A stretch of DNA of 64,000 nt from contig CAXEMN010000009.1 in assembly GCA_963997415.1 (NCBI GenBank), forward strand, positions 243 to 64,242. Direction: 5' to 3'. Source of the DNA: an uncultured Candidatus Poseidoniales archaeon. Lineage in GTDB: Archaea > Thermoplasmatota > Poseidoniia > Poseidoniales > Poseidoniaceae. Under the pieces are notes generated by a model that worked only from the letters and a program-made list of their open reading frames with translations, was not told the DNA's origin and searched no databases. Position numbers and translations under genes: made by a program. Positions 18,637 to 41,600 of this stretch are shown one piece after another; position 1 is the stretch's first letter, and each line of letters begins with the position of its first letter.

Positions 18637-19635
18637 ATGGCACATATCGCAATTCTTGGACTTGGAAACTGGGGGACTGCAATTGCCCGCATGTGGCTTG
18701 CTGATGGACATCATGTCAAAGGTTGGACCATTGAACAGGAAGTCTACGAAACGATCACAATGGAAGGTATCAACAAAAAATACCTTCCAAATCACCCCGT
18801 CGAGGGAATGGAAGCAACAATGCACATCGAAGAAGCACTCGACGGTGTTGAGATTGTTGTTCTCGCCGTCCCATCATCAGTCATCCTCGGTGTTGTCGAT
18901 CAGATCATCCCCCATCTTCGACCTGGACACGTGCTTTTGGACTTAGCAAAAGGCCTCGCACCGGGAAACCAACTCATTTCACAAGCGATTCACGAAAAAC
19001 TGCATGCTGCTGACAAAAACAATCCGTTGGCCGTCGTCACTGGACCAACGATTGCCCCAGAAGCTGCAGGAGGTGTCATGACCACGGCTCTTGTCGCAAG
19101 CGAAGACGTCTCTGTAGCCAAGCATTTAGCCTCAACCTTGACCACTCAAACCTTTATTCTCCACCCGGCTGCTGATCCTGCTGGTGCTGAATTATGGGGC
19201 GCGTTCAAGAACGTCGTAGCGCTTGCTTGCGGCCTTGTTGACGGCTTGAAACAGGTTGGAACCCTCGGCGGTGACAACCTCAAAGCAGCAATTTTCATGG
19301 CCGGTTTCAAAGAAGGGTGCTTGCTTCTTCCCAAACTTGGTGCTCGAGCTGAAGTGGCCTTTGGTCCTGCAGGCTTGGGTGATTTGTACGTCACAGCGAC
19401 TTCACCTCATGGCAGAAACCGGTCCATGGGCGAAAAACTTGGTACTGGCCTTACGCTTCAACAAGCCCTCGACGAGATGCACATGGTCGCTGAAGGTGTG
19501 CGCGCAGCCCAGATGTTCGGTGAACGGGCAGAGGCTTTGAACATTCAAATCCCATTCACAAAGGCCCTCAACACATTACTGGAAGGGTATATTGACGCCG
19601 AAGAGTGCTGCCGTCGCATGGTTGCTTTGCATTGA
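18637..19635 (+). CDS. gpsA: NAD(P)H-dependent sn-glycerol-3-phosphate dehydrogenase
   Basis: IAILGLGNWGTAIA Rossmann loop. VVTGPTIAPEAAGG, GAFKNVVALACGLVDGL, GLGDLYVTATSPHGRNRSMGEKLG, VAEGVRAA. Collinear with bacterial GpsA as recalled. ATG at 18637 (a TTG at 18628 is also possible). Confidence 0.85.
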   Translation: MAHIAILGLGNWGTAIARMWLADGHHVKGWTIEQEVYETITMEGINKKYLPNHPVEGMEATMHIEEALDGVEIVVLAVPSSVILGVVDQIIPHLRPGHVLLDLAKGLAPGNQLISQAIHEKLHAADKNNPLAVVTGPTIAPEAAGGVMTTALVASEDVSVAKHLASTLTTQTFILHPAADPAGAELWGAFKNVVALACGLVDGLKQVGTLGGDNLKAAIFMAGFKEGCLLLPKLGARAEVAFGPAGLGDLYVTATSPHGRNRSMGEKLGTGLTLQQALDEMHMVAEGVRAAQMFGERAEALNIQIPFTKALNTLLEGYIDAEECCRRMVALH

Positions 19636-26745: not shown

Positions 26746-26833
26746 TGGTTTCATGGGACTCACTGTACAACTGCCACAAAAACCTTGATTCGAAGGCGAA
26801 GTCTCTTTGAGACAAGACCGCACCGCAAAGAGC

Positions 26834-28804
26834 ATGGCAAGACCTCGTTTCGCCCAAACCTCGACCGCATTGACCATCATCATCTTGTTTTTGTTGATGG
26901 CCGCATCTTCAATGGTGACTGAAAGTTCCATCGATGAAAAAACCACTGAAGCACCAACAAGTGCCCGACAGGGTTCACTTGATGTGGATTGTTCTGGCTA
27001 CAAATTTGAAGATCTCTTTGACTATAATTTTGCATCCTTTGACATCCTCTTGGGTGACGATTGGGCTACGGCTCAAATGAGTGCTGTGGCTTACGTCAAC
27101 GGTAGCAACTCTGCAACCGTTCGTGAAAACCTCGACGAGTTATTCGATGGCACCCCTGGAGGAAACAACTCATGGATGAGCACTGATGAGCGAGAGGCTG
27201 TTCGAGCCATCGGCCCAGAGTGCATTGCTGACATGGACACTCGACTCGGGATTCGTGAAGGCCTACCACACCGAGGCGGCGTTGACTGGAATGATTTGGA
27301 ATTCGTCAAAGACGGTATTGCCCTTGATGAAGTCAACTTGGTTCCCGCAAACCATCCCGAGGAGCGAAGTTGCCAAGACCTCCTTGCCTCTTCAGATTGC
27401 AAAGAAGTCCCTGTGACCATCACTGACGACCTACAAATCCTCATGTTCACCAAGGAAGATGAAACCCACAATGTGCGCTTTGATCAACTACCAAACAGTG
27501 GATCATCGAACTTCACTTTGGCCCTTAACGTCACCAACATGAGCAGTGCTGGGCTTGTCCTCACCTTCCCACAACTGCAAGGGCTGCGAATGGTAAATTC
27601 ATCAATTCAAGACGACAATATGGAAAGCACAGCCATGCCTGCACCGGTAGCAGAATACCTCCCAGATGGACGATTGCGAGTCACACAGGAAGTCAGTTAT
27701 CTGCCGAGTGATTATCCAGCAATTCGCAACCTTTTCCTCGATTTCACAACCCAAGCACCCGAAACCAATGAGGTTCCTGTGTGGACGGCTGAGGCCCCTG
27801 TTGATGGAACTGTCATCCCATACACTGTTGGTACCCGAGACCTCGTCGCTGGTGAGGTGACCGCCACATGGGCATCAGATGACAGCGGATGGGCACTCGA
27901 GTGTGACTTCGGTGAACAAATGCCTGCCGACCTATGGGCTGCGGGATTGACCGAAGATGGATCTTTATTCTTGGATGGACCTGAAGCCCCTGCTGCAGAT
28001 GAAGTTGCAGAAGCAGAGTGCAGTGTCGTCGATCCATTCGGAGCCGTGTCCGTTGAAACCCGCAACTGGTCATTTGCTCAACCATTCACTGCAGAAGCCG
28101 TGCTCTCTCAAGCAGGGGATTCGATTGAATTTACAGTGACCCCCACCGGCGTGGTTAGTGAAATTTCAATCAGTGCTCATGCGCACCAATCAAATTCAAT
28201 GGGCGAAATGCGAATGGCAACCATCGCATCAGACCCATCGACCATTGCTCTTCCAATGGATGGGCTCGCACCTGGCATGGTTATGGTCATGGGGCAAGCT
28301 CAATCAAACGGCATGCTTGACTACGCCTTTATGCTCGATTTCGGTTTGGAAAAACCAAGCGCTCCACCTGTCATTGAAGTCGATGTCAACCTCGACGGAA
28401 CCAATGCCACATGGGATGCGAGCTACCTCAAGTTCACGCTCCAAGGCAAGGTGCTTGATCCAGACGGTGAATCCGTAGAAATGTCCTTGTCGCTTTGTGG
28501 CTACACCACGAACGATTTCGTCCGCTCAGGCCCTATCTGGGAAATCGATGTCAACATCGTATCGTGTTCATCACAAAACCCACCTGTCACGGTCTACGAT
28601 ATTACCCTCACAGCAACCGATGAATCTGGGACCATGACGACCATGCAAGTCTCGGTACCAGACCCATATGCTTCCGGCGGAGATGACACAGTCATCGAAC
28701 CAGATGAGAATTCAGAAGAAGCCGTTCCTGCAGCCTCTATGATGGCAACCTTGGCCGTAGCCCTTCTTGGAGCCGCTGTGGTCAGCAGAAGAAAGGACCA
28801 GTGA
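26834..28804 (+). CDS. cell-surface protein, N-terminal signal/anchor and C-terminal TM anchor
   Basis: MARPRFAQTSTALTIIILFLLMAASS signal-like start (ATG at 26834). Acidic ~600-aa body with no recognisable domain. C-terminal MMATLAVALLGAAVVSRRKDQ anchor. Confidence 0.6.
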   Translation: MARPRFAQTSTALTIIILFLLMAASSMVTESSIDEKTTEAPTSARQGSLDVDCSGYKFEDLFDYNFASFDILLGDDWATAQMSAVAYVNGSNSATVRENLDELFDGTPGGNNSWMSTDEREAVRAIGPECIADMDTRLGIREGLPHRGGVDWNDLEFVKDGIALDEVNLVPANHPEERSCQDLLASSDCKEVPVTITDDLQILMFTKEDETHNVRFDQLPNSGSSNFTLALNVTNMSSAGLVLTFPQLQGLRMVNSSIQDDNMESTAMPAPVAEYLPDGRLRVTQEVSYLPSDYPAIRNLFLDFTTQAPETNEVPVWTAEAPVDGTVIPYTVGTRDLVAGEVTATWASDDSGWALECDFGEQMPADLWAAGLTEDGSLFLDGPEAPAADEVAEAECSVVDPFGAVSVETRNWSFAQPFTAEAVLSQAGDSIEFTVTPTGVVSEISISAHAHQSNSMGEMRMATIASDPSTIALPMDGLAPGMVMVMGQAQSNGMLDYAFMLDFGLEKPSAPPVIEVDVNLDGTNATWDASYLKFTLQGKVLDPDGESVEMSLSLCGYTTNDFVRSGPIWEIDVNIVSCSSQNPPVTVYDITLTATDESGTMTTMQVSVPDPYASGGDDTVIEPDENSEEAVPAASMMATLAVALLGAAVVSRRKDQ

Positions 28805-28863: not shown

Positions 28864-30051
28864 ATGTTCGCAGGCACTGTTGAGTCGTTGAGTCACGAAG
28901 GTGGCCTCTTGGTGTCCTTTACAGGCTCCTCTCCAGCGCTTGAATCGATTATTGTCAACCTTGAGACTGGGGAGTATATCGGCAAAGTCGACGCTGTGCT
29001 CGGCAACACCAATGCTCCGTTAGCTCATGTGGCACATCTTGATCGAAAACTGGACATCCCTAGCTTGGTTGGAATTGAAGTCAATATTCGGCCAAAGAAG
29101 GTCCGAGAAGAACGAAGTTTTGGCGACCGAAATGGTGGACGGAACAACGACCGCGGTAGAAATGACCGCGGTGGACGGTTTGACCGGAACGATCGCGGTG
29201 GTCGATTTGAGCGAAATGACCGTCGGGGTGGTGACCGAAGAGGACACGACCGAAACAATCGTGGCAACAACGGCGGCGACTGGGAATGTCCAAAGTGCAA
29301 TAACAACAATTTCGCTTTCCGACAAGAATGTAATCGCTGCGGAGAACCGAGAGGAAGTCATAGTCATGGACAGCGTTCAAACGACCGAGGTTTCCAACGC
29401 CGCGAGCAACGAGGTGGACGTTTCGAGCGAAACGACCGTTCCAGCAACCGTATGCAAGGCGACTGGGATTGCCCGAAGTGTCACAATGACAACTTTGCTT
29501 GGCGAACTGAATGCAACAAATGTGGTGCACCGAAGCCTGGAGGTCAAGGACGGCCTCCACGACGGGATGACCGAAGAGGTAACGACCGATTTGGAGGCAA
29601 CGATCGGCGTGGTGGCGACCGAAGAGGCAACGACCGTCGGGGCGGTGACCGAAGAGGCAACGACCGTAGAGGCGGTGGTGAAATATTCAACGACAACGAC
29701 TGGGAGTGCCCTCAGTGTAATAATTCGAATTTCGCGTTCAGACAAGAATGCAATCGGTGTGGCCTGCCTCGAAACGGTGGTCAATCCAGACCTCGTCGAG
29801 ATGACCGGCGAGGTGGCGACCGAAGAGGTCGAGATGATCGGCGAGGTGGCGACCGAAGAGGTGGCGATGACCGACGGGGTGGCGACCGAAGAGGTCGAGA
29901 TGACCGGCGAGGTGGCGACCGAAGAGGTGGCGATGATCGGCGACCCCCTCGCCGTGAACCTCGTGAATTCCGAAAGGCCCGCGGCAAGGGTTCAGGCCAT
30001 GCTCACAACCGGCCACCTCGTGACTTGATGGGCAGGGACAAAGAAGATTGA
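28864..30051 (+). CDS. Gar1-like barrel fused to three RanBP2-type zinc fingers in R/G/D-rich repeats
   Basis: aa 1-78 are collinear with archaeal Gar1 as recalled (G.V......G.LLV....SP.L...IV........IGKVDAVLG....P...V). Three exact matches to W-x-C-x2-C-x3-N-x6-C-x2-C. The remainder is [15 protein letters not shown] repeats. Confidence 0.8.
29278..29343 (+). other. RanBP2-type zinc finger 1
   Basis: [22 protein letters not shown]. Confidence 0.85.
29461..29526 (+). other. RanBP2-type zinc finger 2
   Basis: [22 protein letters not shown]. Confidence 0.85.
29611..29678 (+). repeat. coding 30-nt tandem repeat ([10 protein letters not shown] units)
   Basis: GGTGGCGACCGAAGAGGCAACGACCGTCGG is followed by GGCGGTGACCGAAGAGGCAACGACCGTAGA and a partial third unit. 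Confidence 0.8.
29698..29763 (+). other. RanBP2-type zinc finger 3
   Basis: [22 protein letters not shown]. Confidence 0.85.
29797..29945 (+). repeat. coding 33-nt tandem repeat, ~4.5 units (R[DG][10 protein letters not shown])
   Basis: Units at 29797, 29830, 29863, 29896 and 29929. Units 1 and 4 are identical (CGAGATGACCGGCGAGGTGGCGACCGAAGAGGT). Confidence 0.9.
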
Positions 30052-30076
30052 ACTCGGAACCAAAAGGGTGTTTCAA

Positions 30077-31114
30077 ATGAGTGCTGAAGATCACTACCTC
30101 GATGCAGTCGAAGCGTATGACGAGGGCGACCTTGAGCAAGCATATGCTTCAGCACGCCTAGCAGCCAAAGCAGATCCGCTCCATGTTGATGCTTGGCAAC
30201 TGTGTGCAGAAGCTGCACTGCCCCCTAAGGGTGAAAAGCCGACCTTGAAGCAAGCGGCTCAGTCCTTATCCGCCGTCAAAAAAATCATCGCTATCGATCC
30301 TGATCGCACGGCGATGTGGTTCCTTGGTGGAAGACTGTTGAGTGATGAACTCGGTCTTTTGGATGAATCATTGGCATGGTGGCAACAGTTGCGACATCAT
30401 ATGCCTACAGAAGTGACGCCGCTTGTTGAACAGGCAACATTGCTCGCAGACATGGGCCTTTACACAGAGGCTAGATACCGACTCGAGGCCATCACAGACG
30501 AAAACATGGACGTGAGTGGGCAGCAATATGCCAAGATCAGTCAATTACACGGCATGGTCTTGTCAGCATCAATGCAAGATGAACGTGAATTTTTCAAGCC
30601 TTGGGAGCGACACCACAATGGCTGGGGCGCTATCGAATTGAAGATGCGGAAACCTCCGGTCTCAGAGAGTTTCTTGTTCATGGCAACAACCGTCCCAATC
30701 CTCTTGCTCGAAGTGCTCTTTTCGAACCGTTTTGTCGAACAAGGCTGGGGTGGATTTTGCCTCACCACCCTGATGATTTTCGCAACAGTCCTTATTGGAA
30801 TGAGGTTCAGTCGTCGTATTTTTAGAAGAGTCAACCGTCCTGCCTTCAATCTCTTAAGAGCAATGAATTTTGAGGCGTCGACTGGCTATGTGGTGATTTC
30901 TGAAGACATTCGAACCTCTGTCCTCTACATGTACATCATGCAACGAAAACCCAAAGCATGGCAAGAACGCATGTTGAAGATCATCGACGACAATACGAAA
31001 CTACCCGGAGGCTGGAAGCACAGCCTCCCTGATTTCGAATCCCACTTGGATGACCTTGGATTCATCGAAGAAGAAAAGGAAGAAAAATTTGAGTTCTGGA
31101 ATGAAGAAGAGTGA
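30077..31114 (+). CDS. hypothetical TPR-like/membrane protein
   Basis: N-terminal helical-repeat region (AVEAYDEGDLEQAYASARLAAKADPLHVDAW...). Two central TM helices (FLFMATTVPILLLEVLF; FCLTTLMIFATVLIGM). Acidic C-terminus ending NEEE. ATG at 30077. Confidence 0.5.
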   Translation: MSAEDHYLDAVEAYDEGDLEQAYASARLAAKADPLHVDAWQLCAEAALPPKGEKPTLKQAAQSLSAVKKIIAIDPDRTAMWFLGGRLLSDELGLLDESLAWWQQLRHHMPTEVTPLVEQATLLADMGLYTEARYRLEAITDENMDVSGQQYAKISQLHGMVLSASMQDEREFFKPWERHHNGWGAIELKMRKPPVSESFLFMATTVPILLLEVLFSNRFVEQGWGGFCLTTLMIFATVLIGMRFSRRIFRRVNRPAFNLLRAMNFEASTGYVVISEDIRTSVLYMYIMQRKPKAWQERMLKIIDDNTKLPGGWKHSLPDFESHLDDLGFIEEEKEEKFEFWNEEE

Positions 31115-31226: not shown

Positions 31227-32369
31227 ATGGACATTTCAAGTGAATTGGTGGCGGTCAACACCATACTCATCACGTTAATGCTCTCAGAAGGATTGTATAC
31301 GAAATTCGCAAGGAAAAAACAAGTTCCTTGGAAGGAGATGATTTACAATCTCAATTCTGGCCACCTCATCATGTGGATCTTCCGTGGTTTTGAAATCGTT
31401 GGATACTACTACATTTGGCTTCATTCACCGTTCAGGCTGTTTGAAGGCGTCCCTTACTGGGCAACGGTCGCTATTGCCTTCATTTGTTGGGACTTTGGAT
31501 TCTATTGGTTCCATCGCATGCACCACAAATTCCCTGTGTTGTGGGCCCTGCACAATGTGCATCATGAAGGTGAACATTTCAACCTCTCCCTCGGCATCCG
31601 AAACGCGTGGTTTTCTTCAATCTCAGCCCTTCCATTCTACAGCTTCATGGCTATTGCAGGCATACCGACAGAAATTTTCGTTCTCGTTGCAAGTACTCAC
31701 ATCGTCATTCAATTTTACAACCACAATGGCATTGTCAAAAAATCAGGGGTCTTGGAACACATCATGATCACACCTTCTCATCACCGAGTTCATCACGGCA
31801 GGCAGGAGATTTACATCGACAAGAATTTCGGAGGTACGCTTGTGCTATGGGACAAAATGTTTGGTACATTCCAAAGGGAAGAAGAACATACTCCGGTACA
31901 ATTTGGAACCGATCAACCACTTGGAACCACCAATGTATTCTGGGGTAATTTAATTCCTATTTTCCGCTGGATGGGCGTTAAAATTGAGGCCCCTGTTCAA
32001 GGGAAATATCGAATATCCAACCTCCACATTGTGGTTCATGGCATTCTTCTTTTCACCATTTACATCCAGTACCTGTTGATGGAATTAAACGGGACATATA
32101 CAGACAGATTGATCGTCTTTTGTATTGGCATCGCAGGTACCATTGGCCTTGGCTTCATCAGTGATCAGAAACTTTGGGGCTACAGACTCAATTTGCTTGC
32201 ATCCACCCTTCTTGTCGCATCCTACTTTACCTTCTTCCGCATGAATGATCTCATCTTCGAGGTGATGTTGGCCCTTCTGATGTGTTCAAATCTCATCATG
32301 TTACTCACTGCTATCGAAGAACCACTGCATCAAAAAACATCGAAAGAAGCAATGGGAATGAAGGCATAA
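31227..32369 (+). CDS. fatty-acid-hydroxylase superfamily (sterol desaturase/alkylglycerol-monooxygenase-like) di-iron membrane oxygenase with extra C-terminal TM domain
   Basis: Histidine boxes HRMHH, HNVHHEGEH and HHRVHH, plus NFGGTLVLWDKMFGTF. The C-terminal ~130 aa add about 4 TM helices. Confidence 0.8.
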   Translation: MDISSELVAVNTILITLMLSEGLYTKFARKKQVPWKEMIYNLNSGHLIMWIFRGFEIVGYYYIWLHSPFRLFEGVPYWATVAIAFICWDFGFYWFHRMHHKFPVLWALHNVHHEGEHFNLSLGIRNAWFSSISALPFYSFMAIAGIPTEIFVLVASTHIVIQFYNHNGIVKKSGVLEHIMITPSHHRVHHGRQEIYIDKNFGGTLVLWDKMFGTFQREEEHTPVQFGTDQPLGTTNVFWGNLIPIFRWMGVKIEAPVQGKYRISNLHIVVHGILLFTIYIQYLLMELNGTYTDRLIVFCIGIAGTIGLGFISDQKLWGYRLNLLASTLLVASYFTFFRMNDLIFEVMLALLMCSNLIMLLTAIEEPLHQKTSKEAMGMKA

Positions 32370-32430
32370 ATTGGTTCAGTCCGCTGTTGACCGGTTGAAC
32401 CTTTTTAGTCACAATAGAGTATTCTTCGCC

Positions 32431-33474
32431 ATGGTAGCCGGGGGCACGCATGCGCAAATCCTATCCTTTGCGGGGTATCTACCAGAAAAGGAGATTCTGA
32501 CAGAATCGTTCGCAAAGTTGGGCGACCTCCCAGCTTCAATCGAATTCAAGCGATTGACTGGAATCAATGCTCATAGAGAGGCTGCTGAAGATGAAGGAAG
32601 CCTCGAACTTGCACTCAAGGCTGGTCAAAAGGCGCTTGAACGCTGCGGAATTCCGCGCGAGGAAATTGATCTTGTCATCAGTTGTTCAGTGAGCCAACTT
32701 TCGCCTGAACTTCACCAACATATTTCGCCAAGTTTTGCAACATCGATCGCTGAACATCTTGGCATATACGGCGCACAAACCTTCGATGTCGCTAATGCTT
32801 GCTCGAGCATGATGACGTCATTGATGATTGCAGAAGCCAAGATCAAGGCGGGAAAAATACGTCATGCGCTCATCGTTTCAGGAGAACACATCACATCATT
32901 AATTGATGAAGCAAAGAGCAAGAATCTCTGGTTGCACAGCAAAGCGATTGCTTCGATGACCGTTGGCGATGGTGCTGCAGCATACGTTGTTGGTCCAAGC
33001 AAGGATGCCAAGCGAATGACCTTCAGTGAACCATTCACATTTGCTCAATACAACAATCACTGCATAGGTGAGGCGTCACGTGAACGCCCTGGACCACGAA
33101 TGAGAACGAAGGCCAAGCAGTTGCAATTGGGTGTGCTTGATAACCTGAGTGAGTTTTTACAGCGATCCATGAAGCATATGGAGTTAGAATGGAGTTCAAT
33201 TGATCACGTCTATTCTCACCCAACCACACCAAAGGCAGTCAAGAAAGGCGCAAAGATTGCTGAGGATTCGGTTGGTTCCATTAAATTCCTTCACAATGAC
33301 AGCAAAGACATCGGCAATACCGCCTCGACAAGTCATGGTGTTCTTCTTGAAATGTCCCGTGAAGCCGGCCACCTCAAGGAAGATGATACAGCGATATTGG
33401 TGTCGTTTGGCTCTGGTCTTGCTATGCTCGCTTTGCATTTTCATCTACCTAAGGGGGTTGAAGGATGGTCGTGA
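32431..33474 (+). CDS. KAS III (FabH/OleA-like) thiolase-fold condensing enzyme, catalytic triad present
   Basis: FDVANACSSMMTSL (Cys), VYSHPTT (His), IGNTASTSHG (Asn), C-terminal FGSGLA. ATG at 32431; the ORF is open to a TTG at 32371. Confidence 0.8.
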   Translation: MVAGGTHAQILSFAGYLPEKEILTESFAKLGDLPASIEFKRLTGINAHREAAEDEGSLELALKAGQKALERCGIPREEIDLVISCSVSQLSPELHQHISPSFATSIAEHLGIYGAQTFDVANACSSMMTSLMIAEAKIKAGKIRHALIVSGEHITSLIDEAKSKNLWLHSKAIASMTVGDGAAAYVVGPSKDAKRMTFSEPFTFAQYNNHCIGEASRERPGPRMRTKAKQLQLGVLDNLSEFLQRSMKHMELEWSSIDHVYSHPTTPKAVKKGAKIAEDSVGSIKFLHNDSKDIGNTASTSHGVLLEMSREAGHLKEDDTAILVSFGSGLAMLALHFHLPKGVEGWS

Positions 33475-34178
33475 TGCGTTCATGGAAAGCCAGCCCTCTG
33501 GGCAAAGGCCGTTTACTCAAGACCAGCGTGAACTTGGCAACCTCTGCCATGGAGGAAGCTTCGATTGATTTGAATGATATTGCGCTTATTGTGCACAGCG
33601 GGATTTACAGGCAGCATTTCCGGACTGAGCCAGCATTTGCAACACACCTTCAAGGTGCGTTGAACATCAAATGCACAACACTCACTCAAGAGAGTTCTCA
33701 CTGCTTTGCTTTCGATGTCAGCGATGGGAGTTGTAGCGCTCATGTCGCCCTCGATGCAATTGCCGATCTCTTACCACAATTCAATGGGAAATATGCGATC
33801 TTATGTGTTGGTGATGAGCGCCCTAACAAACAAACTGAATGGCCCCACACACCACATTGCTTCGTTGCCATTCTTGCACTGGAAGGTAATGGTCCTCGTC
33901 TTGAAAGGGTTTCATTTGATGAGACAAAGGCCGTCCCAGAACGAGTGATTGCATCGCATTTCGATACCAACAAAAAGGCCAATGTTTCGATTGAATATGG
34001 CGAATACCAACCTCAGCCAGTGCATGAAACTGAGCTTGAATTTTCAGGCCATCAGAACTGGTTGTCGGGAGAGCATATGCATGCATTCCACCAACGGCTG
34101 GATGGTAAAACCGATGCCTTTACCCATCGAATTGTCGACAGAACAGGTAAGACTACATCGGCCCACTGGGAGCGATGA
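33465..34178 (+). CDS. truncated KAS III-like protein lacking the catalytic His/Asn half (putative non-catalytic partner)
   Basis: N-terminal thiolase-half blocks (DIALIVHSGIY..., FAFDVSDGSCSAHVALDAIADL, YAILCVGDE). Only 237 aa and no GNT/HxxN blocks. Overlaps the upstream gene by 10 nt. Confidence 0.55.
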   Translation: MVVMRSWKASPLGKGRLLKTSVNLATSAMEEASIDLNDIALIVHSGIYRQHFRTEPAFATHLQGALNIKCTTLTQESSHCFAFDVSDGSCSAHVALDAIADLLPQFNGKYAILCVGDERPNKQTEWPHTPHCFVAILALEGNGPRLERVSFDETKAVPERVIASHFDTNKKANVSIEYGEYQPQPVHETELEFSGHQNWLSGEHMHAFHQRLDGKTDAFTHRIVDRTGKTTSAHWER

Positions 34179-35824
34179 GCATGACTGTACGGAGGTCGAA
34201 GGAGGATCTATTTCTCCTGACCTTCCTCATCGTGCTCTGCGTCTATCACATTGTAGCAAGGTTTGGACTGGCTGTTGATTTACAATGGCATACCGACGTA
34301 GGAAGGGACAAACTGCTCACGCCTCCTCATTTGATGATTTTCGCAGGCATTCTACCAACGGCTGTGTTCTTAGGTGGATACCTCATTTGGAACAGTTTCT
34401 ACAAGCCACAAAAAGTGAGTTCAGATTTCAAATTGGGCCCATTGTACGCCCCGGCAAGCATCTGGATGATGTGCACAGGCATGTTTACCCTCACCATTGG
34501 AGGGCTATTTGATGACTATTGGCATGCAAGTTATGGCGTCGACACGACGATCATTACCCCACCACATGTGTGGACTTTTGCCGGTGGAATGCTTGTTGAA
34601 GCAGCCACCTTGGTGCTCGCACTCGAACTTAAGCACAAAATGAAGGAGCAAACACCTCACTGGATCAATATCATTGTGCTGGGAACACTTTGGGCGCTTG
34701 TCTATCACTTCCATCTGGCGTTCGCTAATTTCCTTGACCCTCGGGTATCGACCCTTGATGTCTTTGATTTCCAACTCATTTTGCATTTTGTCTTTGCAGG
34801 TGCGGTCTTGATGACCTTTCTACCACTTGGCGAACGCTGGCTTGGAAAGCACGGGGTGTTGCGCCTCTCCGGCGTTATGCTTGGTTCGCAAGTCCTTTTC
34901 TTAGTGCTTGTACCGTTCTTGGTCACCTCGTTCATGACCGAAGAGCATGTGCTGAGGCCAGGAGCACCCCACACCACCTATGCGGCAAATTGCCTGCCTT
35001 GGTTGCTTTTCCCTGCAGTGTTCTTTGTCTCGAAATTCACCTCAATCACTGAAAAAAAGATCTTGATTCCACTCGTTTTGGCAGTCGATGTGGCTTGGCT
35101 CCCCACATTTATCGAACACACCCCAGTTGAAGTTGGCATTTTGAACACGGTGCTTTCAGTTCTTCTTAGTGCAGCAATCTTGTGGTTGATTTGGCCGATC
35201 ACTCAGGGTTTTGGACCAGCCATCGAAAGGTTAGCTCTACGAACTGCAAGCCAAGGTGTGAAGCCTGTTCGAAAAAAGAAGTCCGTTTCCCTGGTCGTAC
35301 TCATGCTGGTGCTTCTTTGTATGAGCGCCCCATTAGCAAGCGCCCATGCCATCCATTTGAGTGAAGAAGGCGATGGTTTTGATGCGCCTATGCGCTATTT
35401 GATTGACGTCAATGACACCTACGTTTGGGTTGAATTCATGATGTGGCCACCGAAGGCGAAGACGGTCGTTGAAGTCAGCATTCTCCCAGCCGAAAATGAA
35501 TCTACAGTGATTGATGATGTTTGGTTGACCCTTGTTTACCCCGATGAACGTGGTGAAGTCAAGATGAAGACGCTGTTTGAAAACCCAGGAGGCTATGGTC
35601 TGTGGGAATCCCAGGTCAACTTCCCCTATGCTGGTGACCAAACCATTGAAATTTGGCTTGAAGTCGATGGTGTGGCTGCGTTCACTGAGATTCCGGTGGA
35701 TGTAGCAGGCCCACCATCTCTACCGGTGTGGCTCGCTTGGTTCATTGCTTTAGCATGGCCAACAGCGTTTGTTCTGATGTGGAGACGTATCTCACTTTTG
35801 CCAAGCCAAGGGGTGAGTGCTTGA
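34175..35824 (+). CDS. polytopic membrane protein with duplicated WH...PPH motif and C-terminal extracytoplasmic domain
   Basis: About 12 hydrophobic segments. DLQWHTDVGRDKLLTPPHLMIFAG and DDYWHASYGVDTTIITPPHVWTFAG. A late signal-like segment LVVLMLVLLCMSAPLASAHAIHL is followed by a ~140-aa domain and a final TM. Confidence 0.6.
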   Translation: MSMTVRRSKEDLFLLTFLIVLCVYHIVARFGLAVDLQWHTDVGRDKLLTPPHLMIFAGILPTAVFLGGYLIWNSFYKPQKVSSDFKLGPLYAPASIWMMCTGMFTLTIGGLFDDYWHASYGVDTTIITPPHVWTFAGGMLVEAATLVLALELKHKMKEQTPHWINIIVLGTLWALVYHFHLAFANFLDPRVSTLDVFDFQLILHFVFAGAVLMTFLPLGERWLGKHGVLRLSGVMLGSQVLFLVLVPFLVTSFMTEEHVLRPGAPHTTYAANCLPWLLFPAVFFVSKFTSITEKKILIPLVLAVDVAWLPTFIEHTPVEVGILNTVLSVLLSAAILWLIWPITQGFGPAIERLALRTASQGVKPVRKKKSVSLVVLMLVLLCMSAPLASAHAIHLSEEGDGFDAPMRYLIDVNDTYVWVEFMMWPPKAKTVVEVSILPAENESTVIDDVWLTLVYPDERGEVKMKTLFENPGGYGLWESQVNFPYAGDQTIEIWLEVDGVAAFTEIPVDVAGPPSLPVWLAWFIALAWPTAFVLMWRRISLLPSQGVSA

Positions 35825-36780
35825 ACATCCTCGTCACTGGAGCAACCGGCTCACTTGGCTCAGCAGTGATGCAGCGCCTCACAACAAAAGGCCATTCTGT
35901 CAAGGGCATCGGAAGATCGCAACAAAAAATAGAGCACCTCAAAGCAAACGGACTTCAAGTGTACCGATGCGATCTTCTTGATCTTGAGGCGCTAAAATCC
36001 CATACCAACAACGTGGATGTCATTGTCCATTGTGCCGCCTATGCTGCTCCTTTTGGCAGGAAAAGCCAGTTTTTTTCGACGAACGTGAGAGGTTTAGAGC
36101 ATGTCTTCAAAGCTGTGGGGAATTCAGGGGCCCGAGTGATTGTGGTGTCCTCTGCCTCGGTGTTTGATGGTAATAACGAAACGATCCTTCACGGTGATGA
36201 AACACCCCTAAAGAGACCAAAGCACCCCTATGGAGCGAGCAAGTACGATGCAGAATGCCTCGCAGCAACCATGCCGACGAAGGCATGGATTGGATTACGA
36301 CCAAGAGCCGTCTTCGGAATTGGTGACCAAACCCTCTTACCGCGATTAAATCGACTTGTCAGCAAAGACAAATACACCATTGTTGGGAAAGGCGATGCGT
36401 TGATGGACGTCACATGCCTGAACAATTTCCTCGATGCTGTGGAGGCGGCACTCGTCGCTGAAGATGAGGCATGGGGGAAATTCTACAATATTTCAAACGG
36501 TGATCCGAGGCGATTTGAGGACATCCTCAAAGCGTATTCACAGAGGCATGGCAAAGGCATGAAACGGCGTTCAGTTCCAACATTCCTTGTCGCCTTCTTT
36601 GCATACAGTTCAGTCGCCATTGCATCGCTGATCCCAGGGAAACCATGGGAGCCACGATTGACGCCGTATGGGCTAAGGCAAATCACGCAAACCCTTCGAT
36701 TGGACATCTCTGGAGCACAAGAAGCACTCCAATGGAATCCTGAAATGACATTTGAGCAAGGTGTGGAGGAACTCAAATGA
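35821..36780 (+). CDS. extended SDR, 3beta-hydroxysteroid dehydrogenase/NAD-dependent epimerase family (OleD-like)
   Basis: ILVTGATGSLGSAV Rossmann loop right after a TTG that overlaps the upstream TGA (TTGA). Catalytic YGASKYDAE (YxxxK). VVSSASV. Confidence 0.8.
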   Translation: MNILVTGATGSLGSAVMQRLTTKGHSVKGIGRSQQKIEHLKANGLQVYRCDLLDLEALKSHTNNVDVIVHCAAYAAPFGRKSQFFSTNVRGLEHVFKAVGNSGARVIVVSSASVFDGNNETILHGDETPLKRPKHPYGASKYDAECLAATMPTKAWIGLRPRAVFGIGDQTLLPRLNRLVSKDKYTIVGKGDALMDVTCLNNFLDAVEAALVAEDEAWGKFYNISNGDPRRFEDILKAYSQRHGKGMKRRSVPTFLVAFFAYSSVAIASLIPGKPWEPRLTPYGLRQITQTLRLDISGAQEALQWNPEMTFEQGVEELK

Positions 36781-38069
36781 GTAAAATTGGCACCTTGATG
36801 CGCTACCTCAGCACACCAAGGAAATTCAAATCACGCCAACAGATTTTGAAACGTCAAAAGAAAGGCATACGGAAACACATTGCCTATGTTCGAGACCGTT
36901 CCCCGTTCTACGCAAGGCATTGGCAAGGCTTTGACAATGAGCAGTGGCAGAGCTTCCCGCTGATCGATAAGAACATCATGATGGAAAATTTAGATGATTT
37001 CCTCACGGTCAGGTTGAACGTCGAAGAGGCTCGAATCCTCGCAGCAAGGGCTGAAAAAAGTAGAGATTTCTCGCCCAAGATTGGACCCTATTCAATTGGA
37101 TATTCATCCGGAACAAGTGGTTCAAGGGGCATGCACTTCATCAGTGAGGCAGAACAAACAGGGTGGGCAGGGTTCATGCTCAAGCGTGGACTTGGTGGTT
37201 CAATATTGGGACGGCACAAGATTGGATTGATCTTGCGAGCAAATTCAAACACCTTCGAATCGATTGGTTCCAAAAAAATACAATTCTGCTTTTACGATTT
37301 GATGCTCCCTCTTGCTGAGATTCACGAACAACTTCTACGCGACCAAGTGGACGTTCTCATCGGACCACCGAGCGTCTTGAGGTACCTTGCGGATGAGAAG
37401 ACCACACTCAAACCGCGACGAATTATTTCCTCAGCGGAAGTGCTGGACGACATTGATCGTGAAATCATTGAAACCCATTTTGGCACCATAGTCCACCAGT
37501 TTTACTCCTCGACGGAGGGGGAAATTGCTGCAACATGCGAATATGGGACCTTACATCTCAATGAGGGGATGATGGTGATTCAGAAAGAATGGGTGGATGA
37601 AGAAAAGCGTTGGTTCCACCCAATCATCACGGATTTCAAGAGAAAAACCCAGCCGATTATACGCTATCGACTCAATGACATCCTCGTGGCATCACAACAC
37701 CAATGCAAATGCGGTGACGCAAGGCAATCGATCGAGGCAGTCATGGGTCGCCAAGACGATGTCTTCTACCTCCAAAAGGAAAACGAAGAGGGGTATGAGA
37801 AGATTGTCCCCGACTTCATTCGCAGAGCAGTGATGCAAATGCATCCTGACATCACTGCCTTCTGTGCCATTCAGAAATCCGCTGAGACCATCGAGGTTCA
37901 ACTCCTCCCAGAGGGCTTGAAGGACTGTTCTATGCTTGGCTTTGAATCATTATGGGCGTCGAAAAAGGTCAAAGCTGCCAGCATCAATGTGGTCGCCTAC
38001 ACACATGTTCCTTCAACCACGAAACTACGTAGGATTCGACGAAGCTTTGAACCGGCAGAATCCCTTTAG
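36777..38069 (+). CDS. adenylate-forming enzyme, PaaK/CapK/F390-synthetase-like (ANL superfamily)
   Basis: N-terminal SPFYARHWQGF...FPLIDKNIMMENLDDF pattern of COG1541-type ligases. P-loop YSSGTSGSRG. FYSSTEGEIA. ATGA-coupled to the SDR gene. Confidence 0.75.
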   Translation: MSKIGTLMRYLSTPRKFKSRQQILKRQKKGIRKHIAYVRDRSPFYARHWQGFDNEQWQSFPLIDKNIMMENLDDFLTVRLNVEEARILAARAEKSRDFSPKIGPYSIGYSSGTSGSRGMHFISEAEQTGWAGFMLKRGLGGSILGRHKIGLILRANSNTFESIGSKKIQFCFYDLMLPLAEIHEQLLRDQVDVLIGPPSVLRYLADEKTTLKPRRIISSAEVLDDIDREIIETHFGTIVHQFYSSTEGEIAATCEYGTLHLNEGMMVIQKEWVDEEKRWFHPIITDFKRKTQPIIRYRLNDILVASQHQCKCGDARQSIEAVMGRQDDVFYLQKENEEGYEKIVPDFIRRAVMQMHPDITAFCAIQKSAETIEVQLLPEGLKDCSMLGFESLWASKKVKAASINVVAYTHVPSTTKLRRIRRSFEPAESL

Positions 38070-38091
38070 GCATTCCCAGTTAGTTCCCGAC

Positions 38092-38580
38092 ATGGAGGAT
38101 TGTGTCTGGCTCAGGTCGATGCTCACTTCTGAGTTGGAGGTTCGCCCACCAAGGAGCGAACGAAAAGAAAAGCAGGCTCTCGCTGGTTTTTGCACAACAA
38201 TATACGACAATGGCAGACTTGTAGCCTTCGCAGAAATGAGAAAAGTTGGTTCTCATTTCGAGATCTCAACAGTTCTTGTTGACCCAGCCCATCGTGGCAG
38301 GGGCGTCGGAAAAAGCCTCATTCGCACCTCGGTTGAGCAGATCGAGGGGTCGCTGGTGCTGTGTTGCACGAAAAATCCAGCTATGGCAAAGGTGCTGAAA
38401 TCGCTTGGCTTTACAGCCGTTGGTTGGCCAGGAATTTCTACAGCGATTGGCCTCACCATCAACACCATTGGGCGTTTACTATCGATGCTCATCCGTTTTG
38501 AATTCAAGCGCATATGGATCCAAGGCAAAGGTATTCTCGCCTATGAGCGCTATGTGCTTGAAAAGGCTGAGAAGCAGTGA
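38092..38580 (+). CDS. GNAT-family N-acyltransferase
   Basis: Motif A VLVDPAHRGRGVGKSLI, followed by LGFTAVG. ATG at 38092, 23 nt after the upstream stop. Confidence 0.7.
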   Translation: MEDCVWLRSMLTSELEVRPPRSERKEKQALAGFCTTIYDNGRLVAFAEMRKVGSHFEISTVLVDPAHRGRGVGKSLIRTSVEQIEGSLVLCCTKNPAMAKVLKSLGFTAVGWPGISTAIGLTINTIGRLLSMLIRFEFKRIWIQGKGILAYERYVLEKAEKQ

Positions 38581-38647: not shown

Positions 38648-41600
38648 TCACTGCTGTGATTGTGCATACTGGGCTGCATATTGCTGTGCATATTGAGCCG
38701 CTGTTGCTTCATCATAGCCTTGTGAAACGAATTGCTGGTAATACTGTTGGTACACCGCATTATCCGCTGCAGGTGCCGCTGCTGCCGGCGCTGCTGCACC
38801 TGCTGCTTGCGCGGCATATTGTTGAGCATAGGTTCGTGCTGTTTCCTCAGGGTATCCCTGGGCGATCAGTTGCTGGACATATTGCTCAGTAGCATCGAGT
38901 TGTGCGGAGCCATAGCCTGCAGAGCTTGCTGCGAAGTCCTTGATGGTATCATCGCCACCTGCGCCGCCCTTCTTTAGGAAGAGCAAGGTCAAGATGATCA
39001 CCACGAGAAGGGCTGCGACGCCAATGCCGATGGTCGTGGCATCTAGACCGCTGCTTGTGCCGTCGGAATCGCCAGTTTGAGCAGGTGCAACCCATTCTCC
39101 GTTCTCGAAGGTCCAAGCACCACTCCACTCACATTCATTGTCAGCGTTGAGGATGAACTCGCCTCCTGCTGCAAGTGCTTCGGCGTCTGCCTCAAGCCCT
39201 TGACATGCTGGAAGTTGGATTTCAATCCACTTGATGGTGACCCATCGTTCATCATCGCCTTCGTAGATCTTGATGAAGATACGTTGACTTTGAGACTTGT
39301 TGGTGTACTTGCCATCCAACGAAAGGGTGAGATCGAATGTTTCAGTGTCGCCAATCTTGTCGGTACGGTCCCATTCACCAGCGAGGCCAAGGTTGTACTT
39401 GTCCACAGCGCTGGCTTCGAAGTCGGTCTCAACGAAAGCGGCTTCGACGTAGACGTCACCATTTTCCGCACCCGAAAGGACAGTTCCTGAGATGGTCACG
39501 GTATCGGTGTCAACTCGAGAAGCGTTGAGTGAAGCATCGAGTTGGACCACAGGTTCTTCGTCACCGAAGCCATCTGGTACAACAACGAAGTACATTCGGT
39601 ACTTCTCAGAGAACTTACCTGCCTTATCATAGACAATCAATTCAATTCGGATTTGGTTCTCAGTGGTACCGCTTGGGTCAACAGTCACGTTTCGGAAGGT
39701 GTAAGCCCATGCGCCATCACTGGCAGCGTTCTGCTCGAAGGTGTGACCGTCGAGGCTGAAGGAGTCGTCGCCATATGGAGCGTCAAACAGGACCTTCCAT
39801 TCATAGGATTCAATTCCATTACCTTCGAGCGCATCCAAGTCAGTTGAGTTGCTGGCATCGAAGTGGATGGTCACTTCACCATCTTCATCGAGGATGATTC
39901 GATTCACTGACCACTCGGTGTTGGAAACTGTCTTGGTTCCTACGTATTCCACGAGGTCTGTGTACTCATCACGCATGTCGATCATTGCTTCAGCGGTTGG
40001 CCGGTATTCGTCTGCATAGACATCATTGGTTTCCACAGTCACTTCGATGACACGGGCGTGGCCAGCATCGTCGTGAAGCATGAGCGTGATGGTCCATTGT
40101 TCGCCCTGAGCGCAACCTGTTGCCGATGAAAGATCAATCTTACAGAAGTTCATGACTGGCATTGCTTCTGTGGTGTGACCGGTCATTCCAGTCGCCATGG
40201 TCGAACCGTCCCACGAGGTTGGTCCAGAAACAATCCAGTCGGTATGGAGGGTCTCGGTTGTGGTCGTGGTGTAGGAGAAGGTCAAGTCGGCGTCACTCTT
40301 CATGTAGCGCAACTCATATCCACCTGTGCTTGGGTTGATTCCTGGGATTTGGTCGTTGATCTTCAGGTCCAATCCGTTCCCGAGTGTACCGAACCCTTCT
40401 GGGTAAGGTGTGACTTGGTAGCTGAGCATGTTTCCGAGCAATGGTAGCGTTGAACTGTCAGCACGTTCGGAGTGGGTGGAAACGTCCATTGTAGAGATGA
40501 TCATACCACCAGAGTAGTAGCTGCACACACCAAGAACTGTGTCTTGGATGTCATCAGCATCACGAATCAAACGCTGGAAATAACCGCCGTCTTCCATGTA
40601 TCCATTACAGGTCACAGGGACGTTGTTTGCGCTGACTGACTTGGTGTTCAGTACCGCTTGAGCCACTGTTGAATCCGCATCAAATCCTTGGAAGGCGTTG
40701 ATGTCAACGTTATCCATCAATGGGTGGTATGGGTCAGCGAAATCAGTTCCAGAGAAGTCAATTCGAGACTCAGGAGTGTTTCGGCTTTGCACGTCAAGTC
40801 CGAATGGCAGTCGTCCATTGAGGCCTTGGTCGACACCGTAGATTTGGCTTCCTTGTGGCCCGAGGTGGGCTTGGATTGTACCACCTGCGGACATGAAGCC
40901 CTCAAGTGTGGTTCGGTGAGCAGTTGATCCCAACTTCTGGTAATAGCCACGTCCACCGTTCTCGATGTCCTTTGCTGCGATGTCATCTTGCCAAGGCAAT
41001 ACAATCTTGTCGTAGTGAGTGAACCAGCCTGCATCGAGGTACTCATCCCAATCGTTGATGGTGTACTGAGTGTAAGACATGTTCAAGATGTTCAGATCTT
41101 CCTTGATGGCATTGGTTCGAACAGAGGTGTCTGAAAGGATGGCGACATCCACGTGGTCTGCGAAGGTGGCATGGAAGTATCGAACGTTTCCAGAGGCGGC
41201 TCCACTTGCGAGTTCTGCATCAAAGCTGATGTTGTAGGTGTGGCCGTCCATCCAGCCGTTCCATGGGGTGAATGTCACCTCAATCTTCTGATGTGAGTCA
41301 AGAGACTGTGATGGTCCAGCAGTCGTGGTGTGAGCCATGCTACCAGCAGTTTCGTCGTAGATGTTCATGTTGAACACATAGTCACCAGCAAGCACACCGT
41401 TGGTGGCTTGGAGGGCCCAGTCGTGGGTGTAAGAACTGTCAATTGGCATCACACACTCGAGAATTTGGTCATTCAAACACGAAAGCGTGTTCGGCTTACC
41501 CAGAGTGATATCAACGGATTCTACGTTGAAGATCACACGCTCGATGTTGTTTGACGTCGAAATTTCTGCAACGTTGTACCAAGGCACACCTTGAGTTGTG

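Follow-up and report, generated by a model that had tools for sequence, protein, structure and literature searches.

Canonical archaeal Gar1 is a β-barrel of 75–105 amino acids that carries at most a short Lys-rich tail. Canonical Gar1 binds the catalytic domain and thumb loop of Cbf5, in a particle that also contains Nop10, L7Ae and guide RNA; it makes no contact with RNA itself, so that its known mechanism has no need of an RNA-binding tail. Eukaryotic Gar1, fibrillarin and nucleolin bear a GAR/RGG domain, a disordered and strongly cationic region of clustered RGG and RG motifs that is usually interspersed with phenylalanine. RanBP2 fingers of the FUS/ZRANB2 type, which bind RNA, have been described in eukaryotic factors for splicing and RNA processing, and the FET family (FUS, EWS and TAF15) combines a single RanBP2 finger with a SYGQ-rich N-terminal domain, an RRM, RGG boxes and a C-terminal PY-NLS. 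The Arg/Gly-rich extensions of Gar1 and fibrillarin have been described as additions specific to eukaryotes and associated with nucleus and nucleolus (PMC8096250; PMC7194090), and those of eukaryotic Gar1 are thought to provide accessory RNA binding (PMC8096250).

The gene described here occupies positions 28864..30051 of the forward strand of the window, by which we mean the whole 64-kb stretch of DNA analyzed. It starts with ATG and encodes 395 amino acids, as given in the preliminary description of this DNA, which also correctly placed the gene in a prokaryote: it belongs to an archaeon of Candidatus Poseidoniaceae. Its order, the Poseidoniales (Marine Group II, MGII), is among the most abundant archaeal groups of the surface ocean. 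The product comprises an N-terminal β-barrel, three RanBP2-type zinc fingers and about 200 residues of R/G/D/N-rich disorder, and its full-length AF2 model resembles beads on a string, with pLDDT values above 90 for the barrel and fingers and below 50 for the linkers. We consider it probable, at roughly 0.6, that this protein is the Gar1 subunit of the Poseidoniaceae (Marine Group II) box H/ACA pseudouridylation RNP, equipped with a lineage-specific C-terminal extension. Database entries for family members read "hypothetical" or "zinc finger protein" (NCBI) or "rRNA processing protein Gar1" (JGI/IMG). A literature search returned no paper joining Poseidoniales or MGII with Gar1, and no description of archaeal RanBP2 fingers, of an archaeal Gar1 with RGG repeats, or of tandem RanBP2 fingers on a Gar1 barrel. 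The concern raised earlier, that homologues might prove common and already annotated, is thus borne out in part: they are common in Poseidoniales and some carry names from JGI/IMG and NCBI, but no paper describing them was found.

The N-terminal barrel

Residues 1–80 (28864..29103, + strand) are modeled by AF2 as a six-stranded β-barrel with a pLDDT of 91.9. A Foldseek comparison of this model with the PDB returned Gar1 chains as all of the top 11 matches, the archaeal ones ranking best (2ey4_D, E = 9e-4; 2hvy_B, TM 0.75/0.84, rmsd 1.7 Å); across archaeal Gar1 structures, TM values were 0.74–0.75 by query and 0.82–0.84 by target, with an rmsd of 1.7–2.1 Å. Naf1 and unrelated barrels ranked below Gar1. 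Naf1, a eukaryotic H/ACA assembly factor (2V3M), resembles the present protein in setting a Gar1-fold domain within a longer, largely disordered chain, but its structural match is poorer (TMq 0.61–0.67 versus 0.74–0.75 for Gar1), the barrel here lies at the N-terminus, and regions specific to Naf1 are absent.

Sequence comparison also leads to Gar1, provided that the family is represented broadly. A clade-wide profile (A2), built from a family alignment that includes distant members and needed in order to reach Gar1 in the PDB, placed only Gar1 among its top five matches to all PDB sequences (2hvy_B, P. furiosus Gar1, E = 2e-5; 2ey4_C, 2e-4; yeast 3u28_C, 0.018), whereas the narrow family profile (A1) found no Gar1 among the PDB sequences at E ≤ 10. 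An hhalign comparison with Gar1 gave a probability of 92.8% (E = 3.9e-7) over 66 columns. Judged by model and profile, residues 1–80 form a divergent Gar1-type barrel, and the match of residues 1–78 to archaeal Gar1 that had been proposed by eye is upheld, even though curated thresholds are missed. In each of 23 close members tested, Gar1 is the best-scoring Pfam family and its score stays below the cut-off; the present protein scores 16.7 bits at full length and 21.3 bits over residues 1–86, against a gathering cut-off of 29.3, and 10 distant members likewise fall short, at 17–25 bits. For NCBIfam NF009631 the score is 12.1 bits against a cut-off of 139. Used as an HMM against the whole library of 1.84 billion representatives (E ≤ 1e-3), A1 yielded 125 matches, essentially all of them recognizable members of the clade, and reached no recognizable canonical Gar1. 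The divergence of the barrel likely explains why surveys based on Pfam thresholds would score Poseidoniales as lacking Gar1.

Relative to described archaeal Gar1 (P. furiosus PF1791 in 2HVY/3HAY; M. jannaschii 2EY4; PF04410, COG3277), the protein shares the small β-barrel fold, the core signature P-x-L ... G-x-V-x-x-V-x-G-x-x-x-x-P, which appears here with a G-K-V-D-x-V-L-G core, and the arrangement of an N-terminal barrel followed by a basic tail. It differs in having only about 21–23% identity, in scoring under the curated family cut-offs, in a loop (S-H-E-G-G-L-L) peculiar to its clade and a strand rich in His, and in a 315-residue extension, where RGG linkers of mixed charge separate three zinc fingers and a conserved motif lies toward the C-terminus. 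Within the family alignment, mean column identity is 68% in the barrel and the tail is hypervariable; the S-H-E-G-G part of the loop, H55, H58 and R61 are invariant across the clade and lie outside the canonical Gar1 signature.

These features bear on an alternative in which the protein is a paralogue working outside the H/ACA RNP, its barrel docking another partner and the whole acting as a multivalent hub of general function, for RNA binding or as a chaperone, while an ordinary Gar1 is encoded elsewhere. The unusual divergence of the barrel, which in every member tested scores beneath the cut-offs of Pfam and NCBIfam, and the invariant residues peculiar to the clade would suit such a paralogue. 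On the other hand, the core P-x-L ... G-x-V-x-x-V-x-G ... P is retained, the nearest structure is archaeal Gar1 rather than Naf1, and IMG assigns the name Gar1 to family members. We regard the paralogue as unlikely, and return to it below in connection with gene order.

Zinc fingers and linkers

The three RanBP2-type fingers span residues 137–163 (29272..29352, +; detected by regular expression and Pfam PF00641, pLDDT ~93), 198–224 (29455..29535, +; phmmer against the PDB, pLDDT ~95) and 277–303 (29692..29772, +; regular expression, and a match to the ZRANB2 finger 2k1p/3g9y at E = 4.3e-5). Each is a C4 zinc ribbon that fits W-x-C-x2-C-x3-N-x6-C-x2-C exactly and has the D-W and N-x-N-F-A-x-R context, as had been claimed from inspection of the translation; PF00641 is found in three stretches (E = 1.1e-24; 85.8 bits, where 27 would suffice), and pLDDT values for the fingers are 93–96. 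Their best PDB matches are fingers of FUS, ZNF265/ZRANB2 and RBM10. Finger 2 is the most FUS/EWS-like, matching the FUS finger 6g99_B at E = 5.9e-8 over residues 194–227, where the FUS counterpart reads NFSWRNECNQCKAPKPDG. Only finger 3 could be aligned across all 40 full-length homologues (alignment A3), and within it D279, W280, C282, C285, N289, F290, R293, C296 and C299 are invariant.

The residues of ZRANB2 ZF2 that contact RNA are D4, N14, an aromatic residue at 17, R/W19, R20 and N24, with roles described previously (PMC6384913), and these positions are kept in all three fingers. Among 192 distinct family fingers, the ZRANB2 contact positions are conserved as follows: D-1 99%, W 100%, N 94%, N 100%, F 98%, R 100% and N 94%; the position of R19 is occupied by F, R or W, the last being the residue found in FUS and EWS. 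The fingers thereby keep every residue by which ZRANB2 and FUS read GGU-type single-stranded RNA, and by sequence they probably belong to the ssRNA-binding subclass (ZRANB2/FET/RBM5-10 type), in agreement with the type assigned earlier.

RanBP2-type fingers also include protein-binding subclasses, and the fingers might instead bind proteins or other ligands, as in Nup153/RanBP2 (Ran-GDP) or the NZF fingers of Npl4/TAB2 (ubiquitin-like proteins), so that the tail would recruit protein partners. Archaea do possess ubiquitin-like SAMPs, and Nup153 fingers are among the PDB matches. Their scores are weaker, however (3gj8_B, E = 1.2e-4), and the best matches are to fingers that bind RNA, those of FUS, ZRANB2 and RBM10; the T-F dipeptide through which NZF fingers bind ubiquitin is absent from the three finger sequences; RNA-contact positions are 94–100% conserved across the family; and the fingers sit in RGG-rich linkers, as they do in known RNA binders. 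A protein-binding role is therefore very unlikely, and assignment to the ssRNA-binding subclass is preferred.

With ZRANB2/ZNF265, FUS/EWS/TAF15 (3G9Y, 1N0Z, 6G99) and RBM5/RBM10, the fingers share the exact zinc-binding scaffold and the D-W, N-x-N-F, R and N contact residues, and, as in FUS, they are flanked by RGG repeats. They differ from FET proteins in occurring as one to five tandem copies on a Gar1 barrel; Pfam detects Gar1 and the fingers as the only domains, and an RRM, a SYGQ prion-like domain and a PY-NLS are lacking. The FET-protein-like architecture suggested in the preliminary description accordingly holds for the module of fingers plus RGG repeats and fails for the RRM and the SYGQ-type domain. 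Membership in the FET family was considered and rejected, given an N-terminus that is a Gar1 barrel, a C-terminus that reads RGKxxGHAHNxxP, and the lack of an RRM. To our knowledge, the host archaeon has no eukaryotic-type splicing. In 1.22 Mb of Poseidoniales loci together with the window, no RanBP2-finger gene was found besides the Gar1-domain gene.

The first linker (29104..29271, +) is built of GGRFDRNDR-type repeats of R, G, N and D, with pLDDT below 50 for residues 87–136; its composition was taken over residues 81–138, which extends two residues into finger 1. The peptide repeats quoted earlier are present in the tail. Overall, R accounts for 34% of the 200 disordered residues (pLDDT <50), G for 23%, D for 16.5% and N for 9%, and 13 RGG and 22 RG motifs occur among them. 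Acidic residues make up 20%; the charged fraction is 0.54, with a net charge of only +0.14 per residue. As read from this composition, the linkers are arginine-rich mixed-charge R/D/G sequence; with 16.5% D, their acidity far exceeds that of eukaryotic GAR domains, which tells against the reading as a Gar1 subunit, and a likeness to Gly/Arg-rich flanks of the eukaryotic type is probably overstated. Eukaryotic Gar1 (yeast 3U28; human telomerase H/ACA lobe 7BGB) similarly joins a barrel to a disordered Arg/Gly-rich RGG extension, but there the GAR domains lie on both sides of the barrel, are nearly acid-free and have no zinc fingers, whereas the present extension is C-terminal only, is rich in Asp and includes folded fingers; in addition, Foldseek places the barrel structurally nearer the archaeal form. 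Because Poseidoniales are not Asgard archaea, the features shared with eukaryotic Gar1 are taken to reflect convergence or domain transfer rather than ancestry.

Orthology, gene order and a proposed role

Scoring of 8000 candidates gave 367 homologous clusters at E ≤ 1e-3, and among the best 120 the named homologues are MGII/Poseidoniales or unclassified Euryarchaeota, with one exception labeled Woesearchaeota. A search for related loci, run with the narrow alignment A1, revealed that at least 203 GTDB species-level Poseidoniales genomes encode a relative in conserved synteny. In the loci sampled, which represent the same region, the gene is single-copy; the number of fingers ranges from one to five across relatives.

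Two conserved genes accompany it. The upstream neighbor (26807..28804, +) encodes 665 residues that match no Pfam family, with a hydrophobic segment at both the start and the end of the translation, and it adjoins the gene in 79 of 80 loci. The downstream neighbor (30068..31114, +; 348 residues, no Pfam family) is present in 58 of the 80. Both recur at locus L081 (28% identity, E = 5e-57, and 31% identity, E = 3e-42, respectively), beside the finger-less orthologue whose locus was read. Finger-less relatives of 145–163 residues look like plain Gar1, and one of them, the 163-residue P0430 of a distant lineage, lies between the same two neighbors. Because this finger-less relative, at the one such locus read, occupies the same genomic slot, the tail appears to have grown within a single orthologous gene.

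The conserved neighbors are functionally uninformative, and the partners that had been recommended as a check, cbf5, nop10 and L7Ae, were not detected by Pfam within the 64-kb window; nor was an H/ACA sRNA, the Rfam matches in the window being two tRNAs only. This lack of linkage to H/ACA genes would also be compatible with the paralogue discussed above. Weighing against the paralogue are the finger-less relatives resembling plain Gar1, with P0430 as positional orthologue, and the finding of no second Gar1-like gene in 1.2 Mb of sampled Poseidoniales DNA, all from the same region. Assignment as the Gar1 subunit remains the preferred reading.

Near its end, the protein carries a short linear motif, F-R-K-x-R-G-K-x-x-G-H-A-H-N-x-x-P (residues 369–385; 29968..30018, +), defined from an alignment of 40 full-length homologues in which R370, G374, G378, H379, A380, H381, N382 and P385 are invariant, and found in most of the 120 best homologue matches. 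Such invariance implies an additional partner, which is a further point in favor of the paralogue. A fold-back of the GHAHN motif onto the barrel was considered and rejected, as the full-length AF2 model shows pLDDT values of 45–58 there and no docking. The window also encodes an RGG-tailed DEAD-box helicase. A C-terminal motif common to the two proteins was likewise discarded, the helicase version (GK..NRP) not being conserved in 120 helicase homologues.

If the protein is the Gar1 subunit, then by analogy with canonical Gar1 the barrel would dock on the catalytic domain of Cbf5, where it would regulate the thumb loop and the loading and release of substrate. The tail might serve as a flexible multivalent RNA tether, with three low-affinity, GGN-reading fingers supplemented by non-specific RGG contacts, and could enrich the RNP locally wherever pre-rRNA or other substrates offer G-rich single-stranded stretches. 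In eukaryotic Gar1, the RGG domains have been proposed to play a roughly similar accessory part in RNA binding. A more far-reaching proposal, which we consider distinctly unlikely, is that MGII independently evolved a eukaryote-like RNP organizer, in which Gar1 with FUS/ZRANB2-type fingers captured horizontally from planktonic eukaryotes would join the RGG-tailed DEAD-box helicase in nucleating an RNA-dependent, nucleolus-like condensate for ribosome biogenesis. On the preferred reading, an Arg/Gly-rich tail and FUS/ZRANB2-type fingers are combined on the Gar1 of cells without a nucleus and are conserved throughout an order. Poseidoniales Gar1 might thus offer a natural experiment on what a tail contributes to the H/ACA RNP beyond targeting to nucleus or nucleolus, and the protein, being compact and recombinantly tractable, could be used to study multivalent RNA binding and phase behavior in an archaeal context.

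Repeat variation in the tail

Tandem Repeats in the DNA of the tail were located by TRF: a 30-nt unit repeated 2.8 times with 87% matches lies in linker 3 (29594..29677, +; 10-residue units), and a 33-nt unit repeated 4.5 times with 88% matches follows at 29795..29943 (+; 11-residue units). At these values the repeats are less regular than the "near-perfect" arrays of the preliminary description, but the expansion and contraction proposed there is supported, since units have been gained and lost: the copy number of the 33-nt repeat varies, and an 18-nt in-frame indel (GGDDRR) within it distinguishes this gene from that of the closest genome, L002. The number of fingers and the length of the tail may drift rapidly through slippage or recombination of such tandem repeats. 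Across 29020–30140, the long open reading frames that occur on the minus strand and in the alternative frames are by-products of the repeats; of the frames in this interval, only the + frame has homologues.

Spurious frames of this kind, together with the breakage of assemblies at repeats, raise the alternative of an artefact, in which the gene would be an assembly chimera or an open reading frame miscalled over low-complexity sequence. Contigs of 22 of 80 genomes stop within the gene, and some copies are without the C-terminal motif. An artefact is nevertheless scarcely credible. The same combination of barrel and fingers is found in all of the 120 best matches and is encoded by at least 203 species genomes that were assembled independently, the reading frame and C-terminal motif are kept across 40 full-length proteins, and copies 99–100% identical to this one exist in two other assemblies (P0001 and L002). 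With more than 200 independent genomes sharing this architecture, the fusion is not an assembly chimera, which settles the doubt voiced earlier on this point. The tandem repeats of this gene do break MGII assemblies systematically. The copies without the C-terminal motif probably reflect frameshift or misassembly.

A divergent Gar1 barrel

The open reading frame at window positions 28864-30051 (+ strand) begins with an ATG and comprises 395 codons, with a translation identical to that in the preliminary description. The interval also contains long open reading frames in the other frames and on the minus strand; these have no homologues and arise from the repetitive, G+C-rich composition of the gene.

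The N-terminal domain had been proposed to resemble Gar1. Because this sequence alone scores 21.3 bits against the Pfam Gar1 family, below the cut-off of 29.3, and matches the NCBIfam Gar1 equivalog with E=0.17, four further tests were run. First, PF04410 is the top family for all 23 nonredundant N-terminal domains in a narrow alignment of homologues (A1), and the sole family for 22; the best E-value is 2.7e-5, with every domain under the cut-off. Second, aa 1-84 were modelled with AlphaFold2 from A1 (mean pLDDT 91.9) and the model was compared with the PDB using Foldseek; Gar1 chains account for all eleven top matches. Archaeal Gar1 proteins from M. jannaschii (2EY4; E=9e-4, TM 0.74/0.82, rmsd 2.1 Å) and P. 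furiosus (2HVY; TM 0.75/0.84, rmsd 1.7 Å) are followed by those of insect, yeast, and human, and the barrels of Naf1, F1-ATPase, and aIF5B rank after Gar1 with clearly lower TM values. Third, the A1 profile finds no Gar1 among PDB sequences; with a broader profile of 36 sequences that includes distant clade members (A2), the top five matches are Gar1 (P. furiosus, E=2e-5, profile positions 13-82). Fourth, hhalign of A2 against P. furiosus Gar1 yields a probability of 92.8% (E=3.9e-7, 66 columns) and aligns the canonical P-x-L ... G-x-V-x-x-V-x-G ... P core. Several members have also been named 'rRNA processing protein Gar1' independently by JGI/IMG.

These tests bear out the proposed assignment, and we regard the Gar1 fold and homology of the domain as established and its divergence as unusual. 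Fold and profile homology place the protein in the Gar1 family, although curated score cut-offs are not reached, and a survey at the Pfam threshold would miss the barrel. Its clade-specific invariant residues are an S-H-E-G-G-L-L loop, H55, H58, and R61.

RanBP2-type fingers and a mixed-charge tail

Pfam identifies the RanBP2 zinc finger (PF00641) in three stretches of the protein (E=1.1e-24, 85.8 bits versus a cut-off of 27). A regular expression confirmed the three exact W-x-C-x2-C-x3-N-x6-C-x2-C fingers reported previously, at aa 137-163, 198-224, and 277-303. When the whole protein was searched against PDB sequences, finger 2 (aa 198-224) matched the FUS zinc finger 6G99 (E=5.9e-8). Further matches include ZNF265/ZRANB2 fingers (1N0Z, 2K1P/3G9Y), a FUS finger-plus-RGG fragment (5YVH), and RBM10 (2MXV), with Nup153 fingers matching more weakly. 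By sequence, the three fingers are true members of PF00641 and belong to its ZRANB2/FET subclass, which binds single-stranded RNA. The pattern occurs nowhere outside this gene in 1.22 Mb of Poseidoniales loci plus the window.

In the structure of ZRANB2 bound to RNA, the residues that read GGU are D4, N14, a stacking aromatic residue at position 17, R19/R20, and N24; position 19 is W in FUS and EWS (PMC6384913). All three fingers carry D, N, N, F, an aromatic residue (F/W/F), R, and N at the ZRANB2 contact positions, and contact positions are 94-100% conserved among 192 distinct family fingers (D 99%, W 100%, N 94%, N 100%, F 98%, R 100%, N 94%). The equivalent of R19 in this set is F in 77%, R in 11%, and W in 6%. 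The fingers lack the T-F dipeptide that NZF fingers binding ubiquitin carry. From the retained contact residues and the missing dipeptide we infer, on good grounds, that the fingers would bind RNA, probably at GGN-type motifs. Two Thalassarchaeaceae (MGIIb) homologues from a distant subfamily, P0213 and P0254, possess at aa ~126-150 a lone degenerate finger (WVCSACRSMNSRTSKCSKCGSPRP; PF00641 at only 20 bits) that does not carry the N-x-N-F RNA-contact residues, and thus the capacity to read RNA is not kept clade-wide.

The ~200 non-finger residues past aa 80 consist of 34% Arg, 23% Gly, 16.5% Asp, and 9% Asn and include 13 RGG and 22 RG motifs. With a charged fraction of 0.54 and a net charge per residue of only +0.14, this tail is rich in arginine but of mixed charge, has RGG boxes set within it, and differs from classical GAR domains, which are nearly devoid of acidic residues. 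Tandem Repeats Finder locates a 30-nt unit present 2.8 times at 29594-29677 (87% matches) and a 33-nt unit present 4.5 times at 29795-29943 (88% matches); the repeats described earlier are therefore genuine tandem arrays but not 'near-perfect' ones. The closest genome differs from the window by an 18-nt in-frame indel in the 33-nt array, encoding GGDDRR, and its tail has ~94% nucleotide identity. Across homologues the tails are hypervariable in both length and sequence, with 1 to 5 fingers.

The last 30 residues hold the motif (F/Y)-R-(K/R)-x-(R/K)-G-K-x-x-G-H-A-H-N-x-x-P, and 40 full-length homologues all retain R370, G374, G378, H379, A380, H381, N382, and P385. Its probable role is that of a short linear motif recognized by a partner. 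A full-length AlphaFold2 model, with pLDDT >90 for the barrel and three fingers and <50 for all linkers, predicts a beads-on-a-string protein. Docking of the C-terminal motif (pLDDT 45-58) on the barrel was considered, and no such docking is seen in the model.

Distribution, orthology, and proposed function

The top matches derive from Candidatus Poseidoniaceae/Poseidoniales (Marine Group II) MAGs and include one 100% identical partial protein. A common layout, barrel followed by 1-5 fingers and, in most, the C-terminal motif, is shared by all of the best 120. The recurrence of the complete architecture across many independent assemblies excludes an assembly chimera, which the preliminary description had raised. 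When each GTDB species was represented by a single genome, 203 genomes were seen to encode a relative, the best 80 of which have titles that are Poseidoniales/MGII or unresolved (Euryarchaeota, Methanobacteriota, Thermoplasmatota) and include the original MG-II chromosome, CM001443.1. Upstream genes for a 299-aa protein, an ABC ATPase, an ABC-2 permease, and a 665-aa protein with no Pfam family remain adjacent in 65-79 of these 80 loci, and a downstream 348-aa gene is kept in 58.

Contigs end inside the 1.2-kb gene in 22 of the 80 species-representative genomes, which shows that its tandem repeats break up or corrupt short-read assemblies. Several apparently complete copies among the 80 loci (gene at ~10001 in each) are missing the C-terminal motif. 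One MAG, QQSC01 bin_220, has two differing copies on two contigs (L051 and L057), a 2-finger truncated form and a 3-finger form of 432 aa, which probably represent mixed populations in one bin and not a true duplication.

An exhaustive search of 1.84 billion representative proteins with the A1 HMM returned only 125 matches, among them remoter homologues with 0-3 fingers that belong to Thalassarchaeaceae (MGIIb) or to unclassified Thermoplasmatota. Seeding with a bare 93-aa member recovered 49 finger-less relatives, mostly of 140-163 aa, and those that were read bear short basic R/G/S/K tails. One of them, P0430 (163 aa), is flanked by homologues of the window's 665-aa gene (28% identity, E=5e-57), 348-aa gene (31%, E=3e-42), and 2225-aa giant protein gene (32%, E=0). 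Because P0430 occupies the same slot, finger-less and finger-bearing forms are positional orthologues, and it was inside a single gene lineage that the tail and its fingers accumulated. Given this positional orthology and the strongly conserved barrel, the gene is likely to be the Gar1 of the clade. None of cbf5, nop10, L7Ae, or an H/ACA RNA is present within the 64-kb window.

Archaeal Gar1 binds Cbf5, makes no guide-RNA contact, and governs both the thumb loop and the release of product; its eukaryotic counterpart has extra RGG domains, held to be eukaryote-specific, that seem to touch substrate RNA and to influence catalysis and turnover (PMC8096250). GAR domains of Gar1 and fibrillarin have been stated to be absent from archaea (PMC8096250, PMC7194090). 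The protein studied here would work like a Gar1 with an accessory RNA-binding tail of eukaryotic style. It is not an FET protein, the likeness suggested earlier, since it has no RRM, SYGQ domain, or PY-NLS. We propose that the barrel would dock on Cbf5 while the flexible, multivalent tail tethers RNA, its three fingers reading GGN weakly and its RGG motifs adding non-specific contacts. Such tethering could concentrate the RNP locally where pre-rRNA or other targets are G-rich and single-stranded, and the C-terminal motif might recruit one more partner. A multivalent mixed-charge protein can in principle form condensates, but for this one the idea is pure speculation.

Our literature search turned up no account of this architecture, and none of RGG tails on an archaeal Gar1 or of Marine Group II proteins with RanBP2 fingers. 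Hundreds of copies already reside in databases under generic names, and the protein is not categorically new. It is relevant for work on H/ACA RNPs, archaeal RNA biology, and low-complexity RNA-binding domains.

Other genes in the window

A DEAD-box RNA helicase (Pfam DEAD and Helicase_C; 59558-61213, - strand) ends in a G/R/S/Y-rich tail of ~135 aa (GGYRGGGRSGGG...) with 9 RGG motifs. At least three RGG occur in the tails of 107 of its best 120 homologues, and so RGG tails on RNA-handling proteins seem to be a lineage theme. Zinc fingers are found in none of these 120, and the four that are organism-named are from Poseidoniaceae or Euryarchaeota. The helicase region is flanked by genes for an NFACT (Rqc2/RqcH-like) protein (57380-59551, +) and an RNase PH-domain (exosome-type) protein (62590-63414, +). 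Rfam and ARAGORN detect tRNA-Gln (54342-54417, -) and tRNA-Phe (63470-63544, +) and no other RNAs in the window.

The block at 31227-38580 (+) comprises genes for a fatty-acid hydroxylase, a KAS-III-like enzyme, an NAD epimerase/dehydratase, and a GNAT acetyltransferase, along with several of no assigned function. Among the 80 Poseidoniales loci it is matched, in part, by the closest genome alone (L002), in a comparison that reaches the contig end part-way through the 36777-38069 gene. The block looks like an inserted, strain-variable island. In L081, a locus of the distant lineage, the 348-aa gene directly abuts the gene for the giant 2225-aa protein with FG-GAP repeats (38648-45325, -), which is kept at the same position in both distant loci, L081 and L082, with 32% identity over ~2200 aa. 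Genes for a bacterial-type, GpsA-like NAD-dependent glycerol-3-phosphate dehydrogenase (18628-19635, +), an acyl-CoA dehydrogenase (4668-5858, -), a thiolase (61300-62493, -), and the KAS-III-like enzyme (32371-33474, +) form a bacterial-style lipid/fatty-acid set in an archaeal genome.
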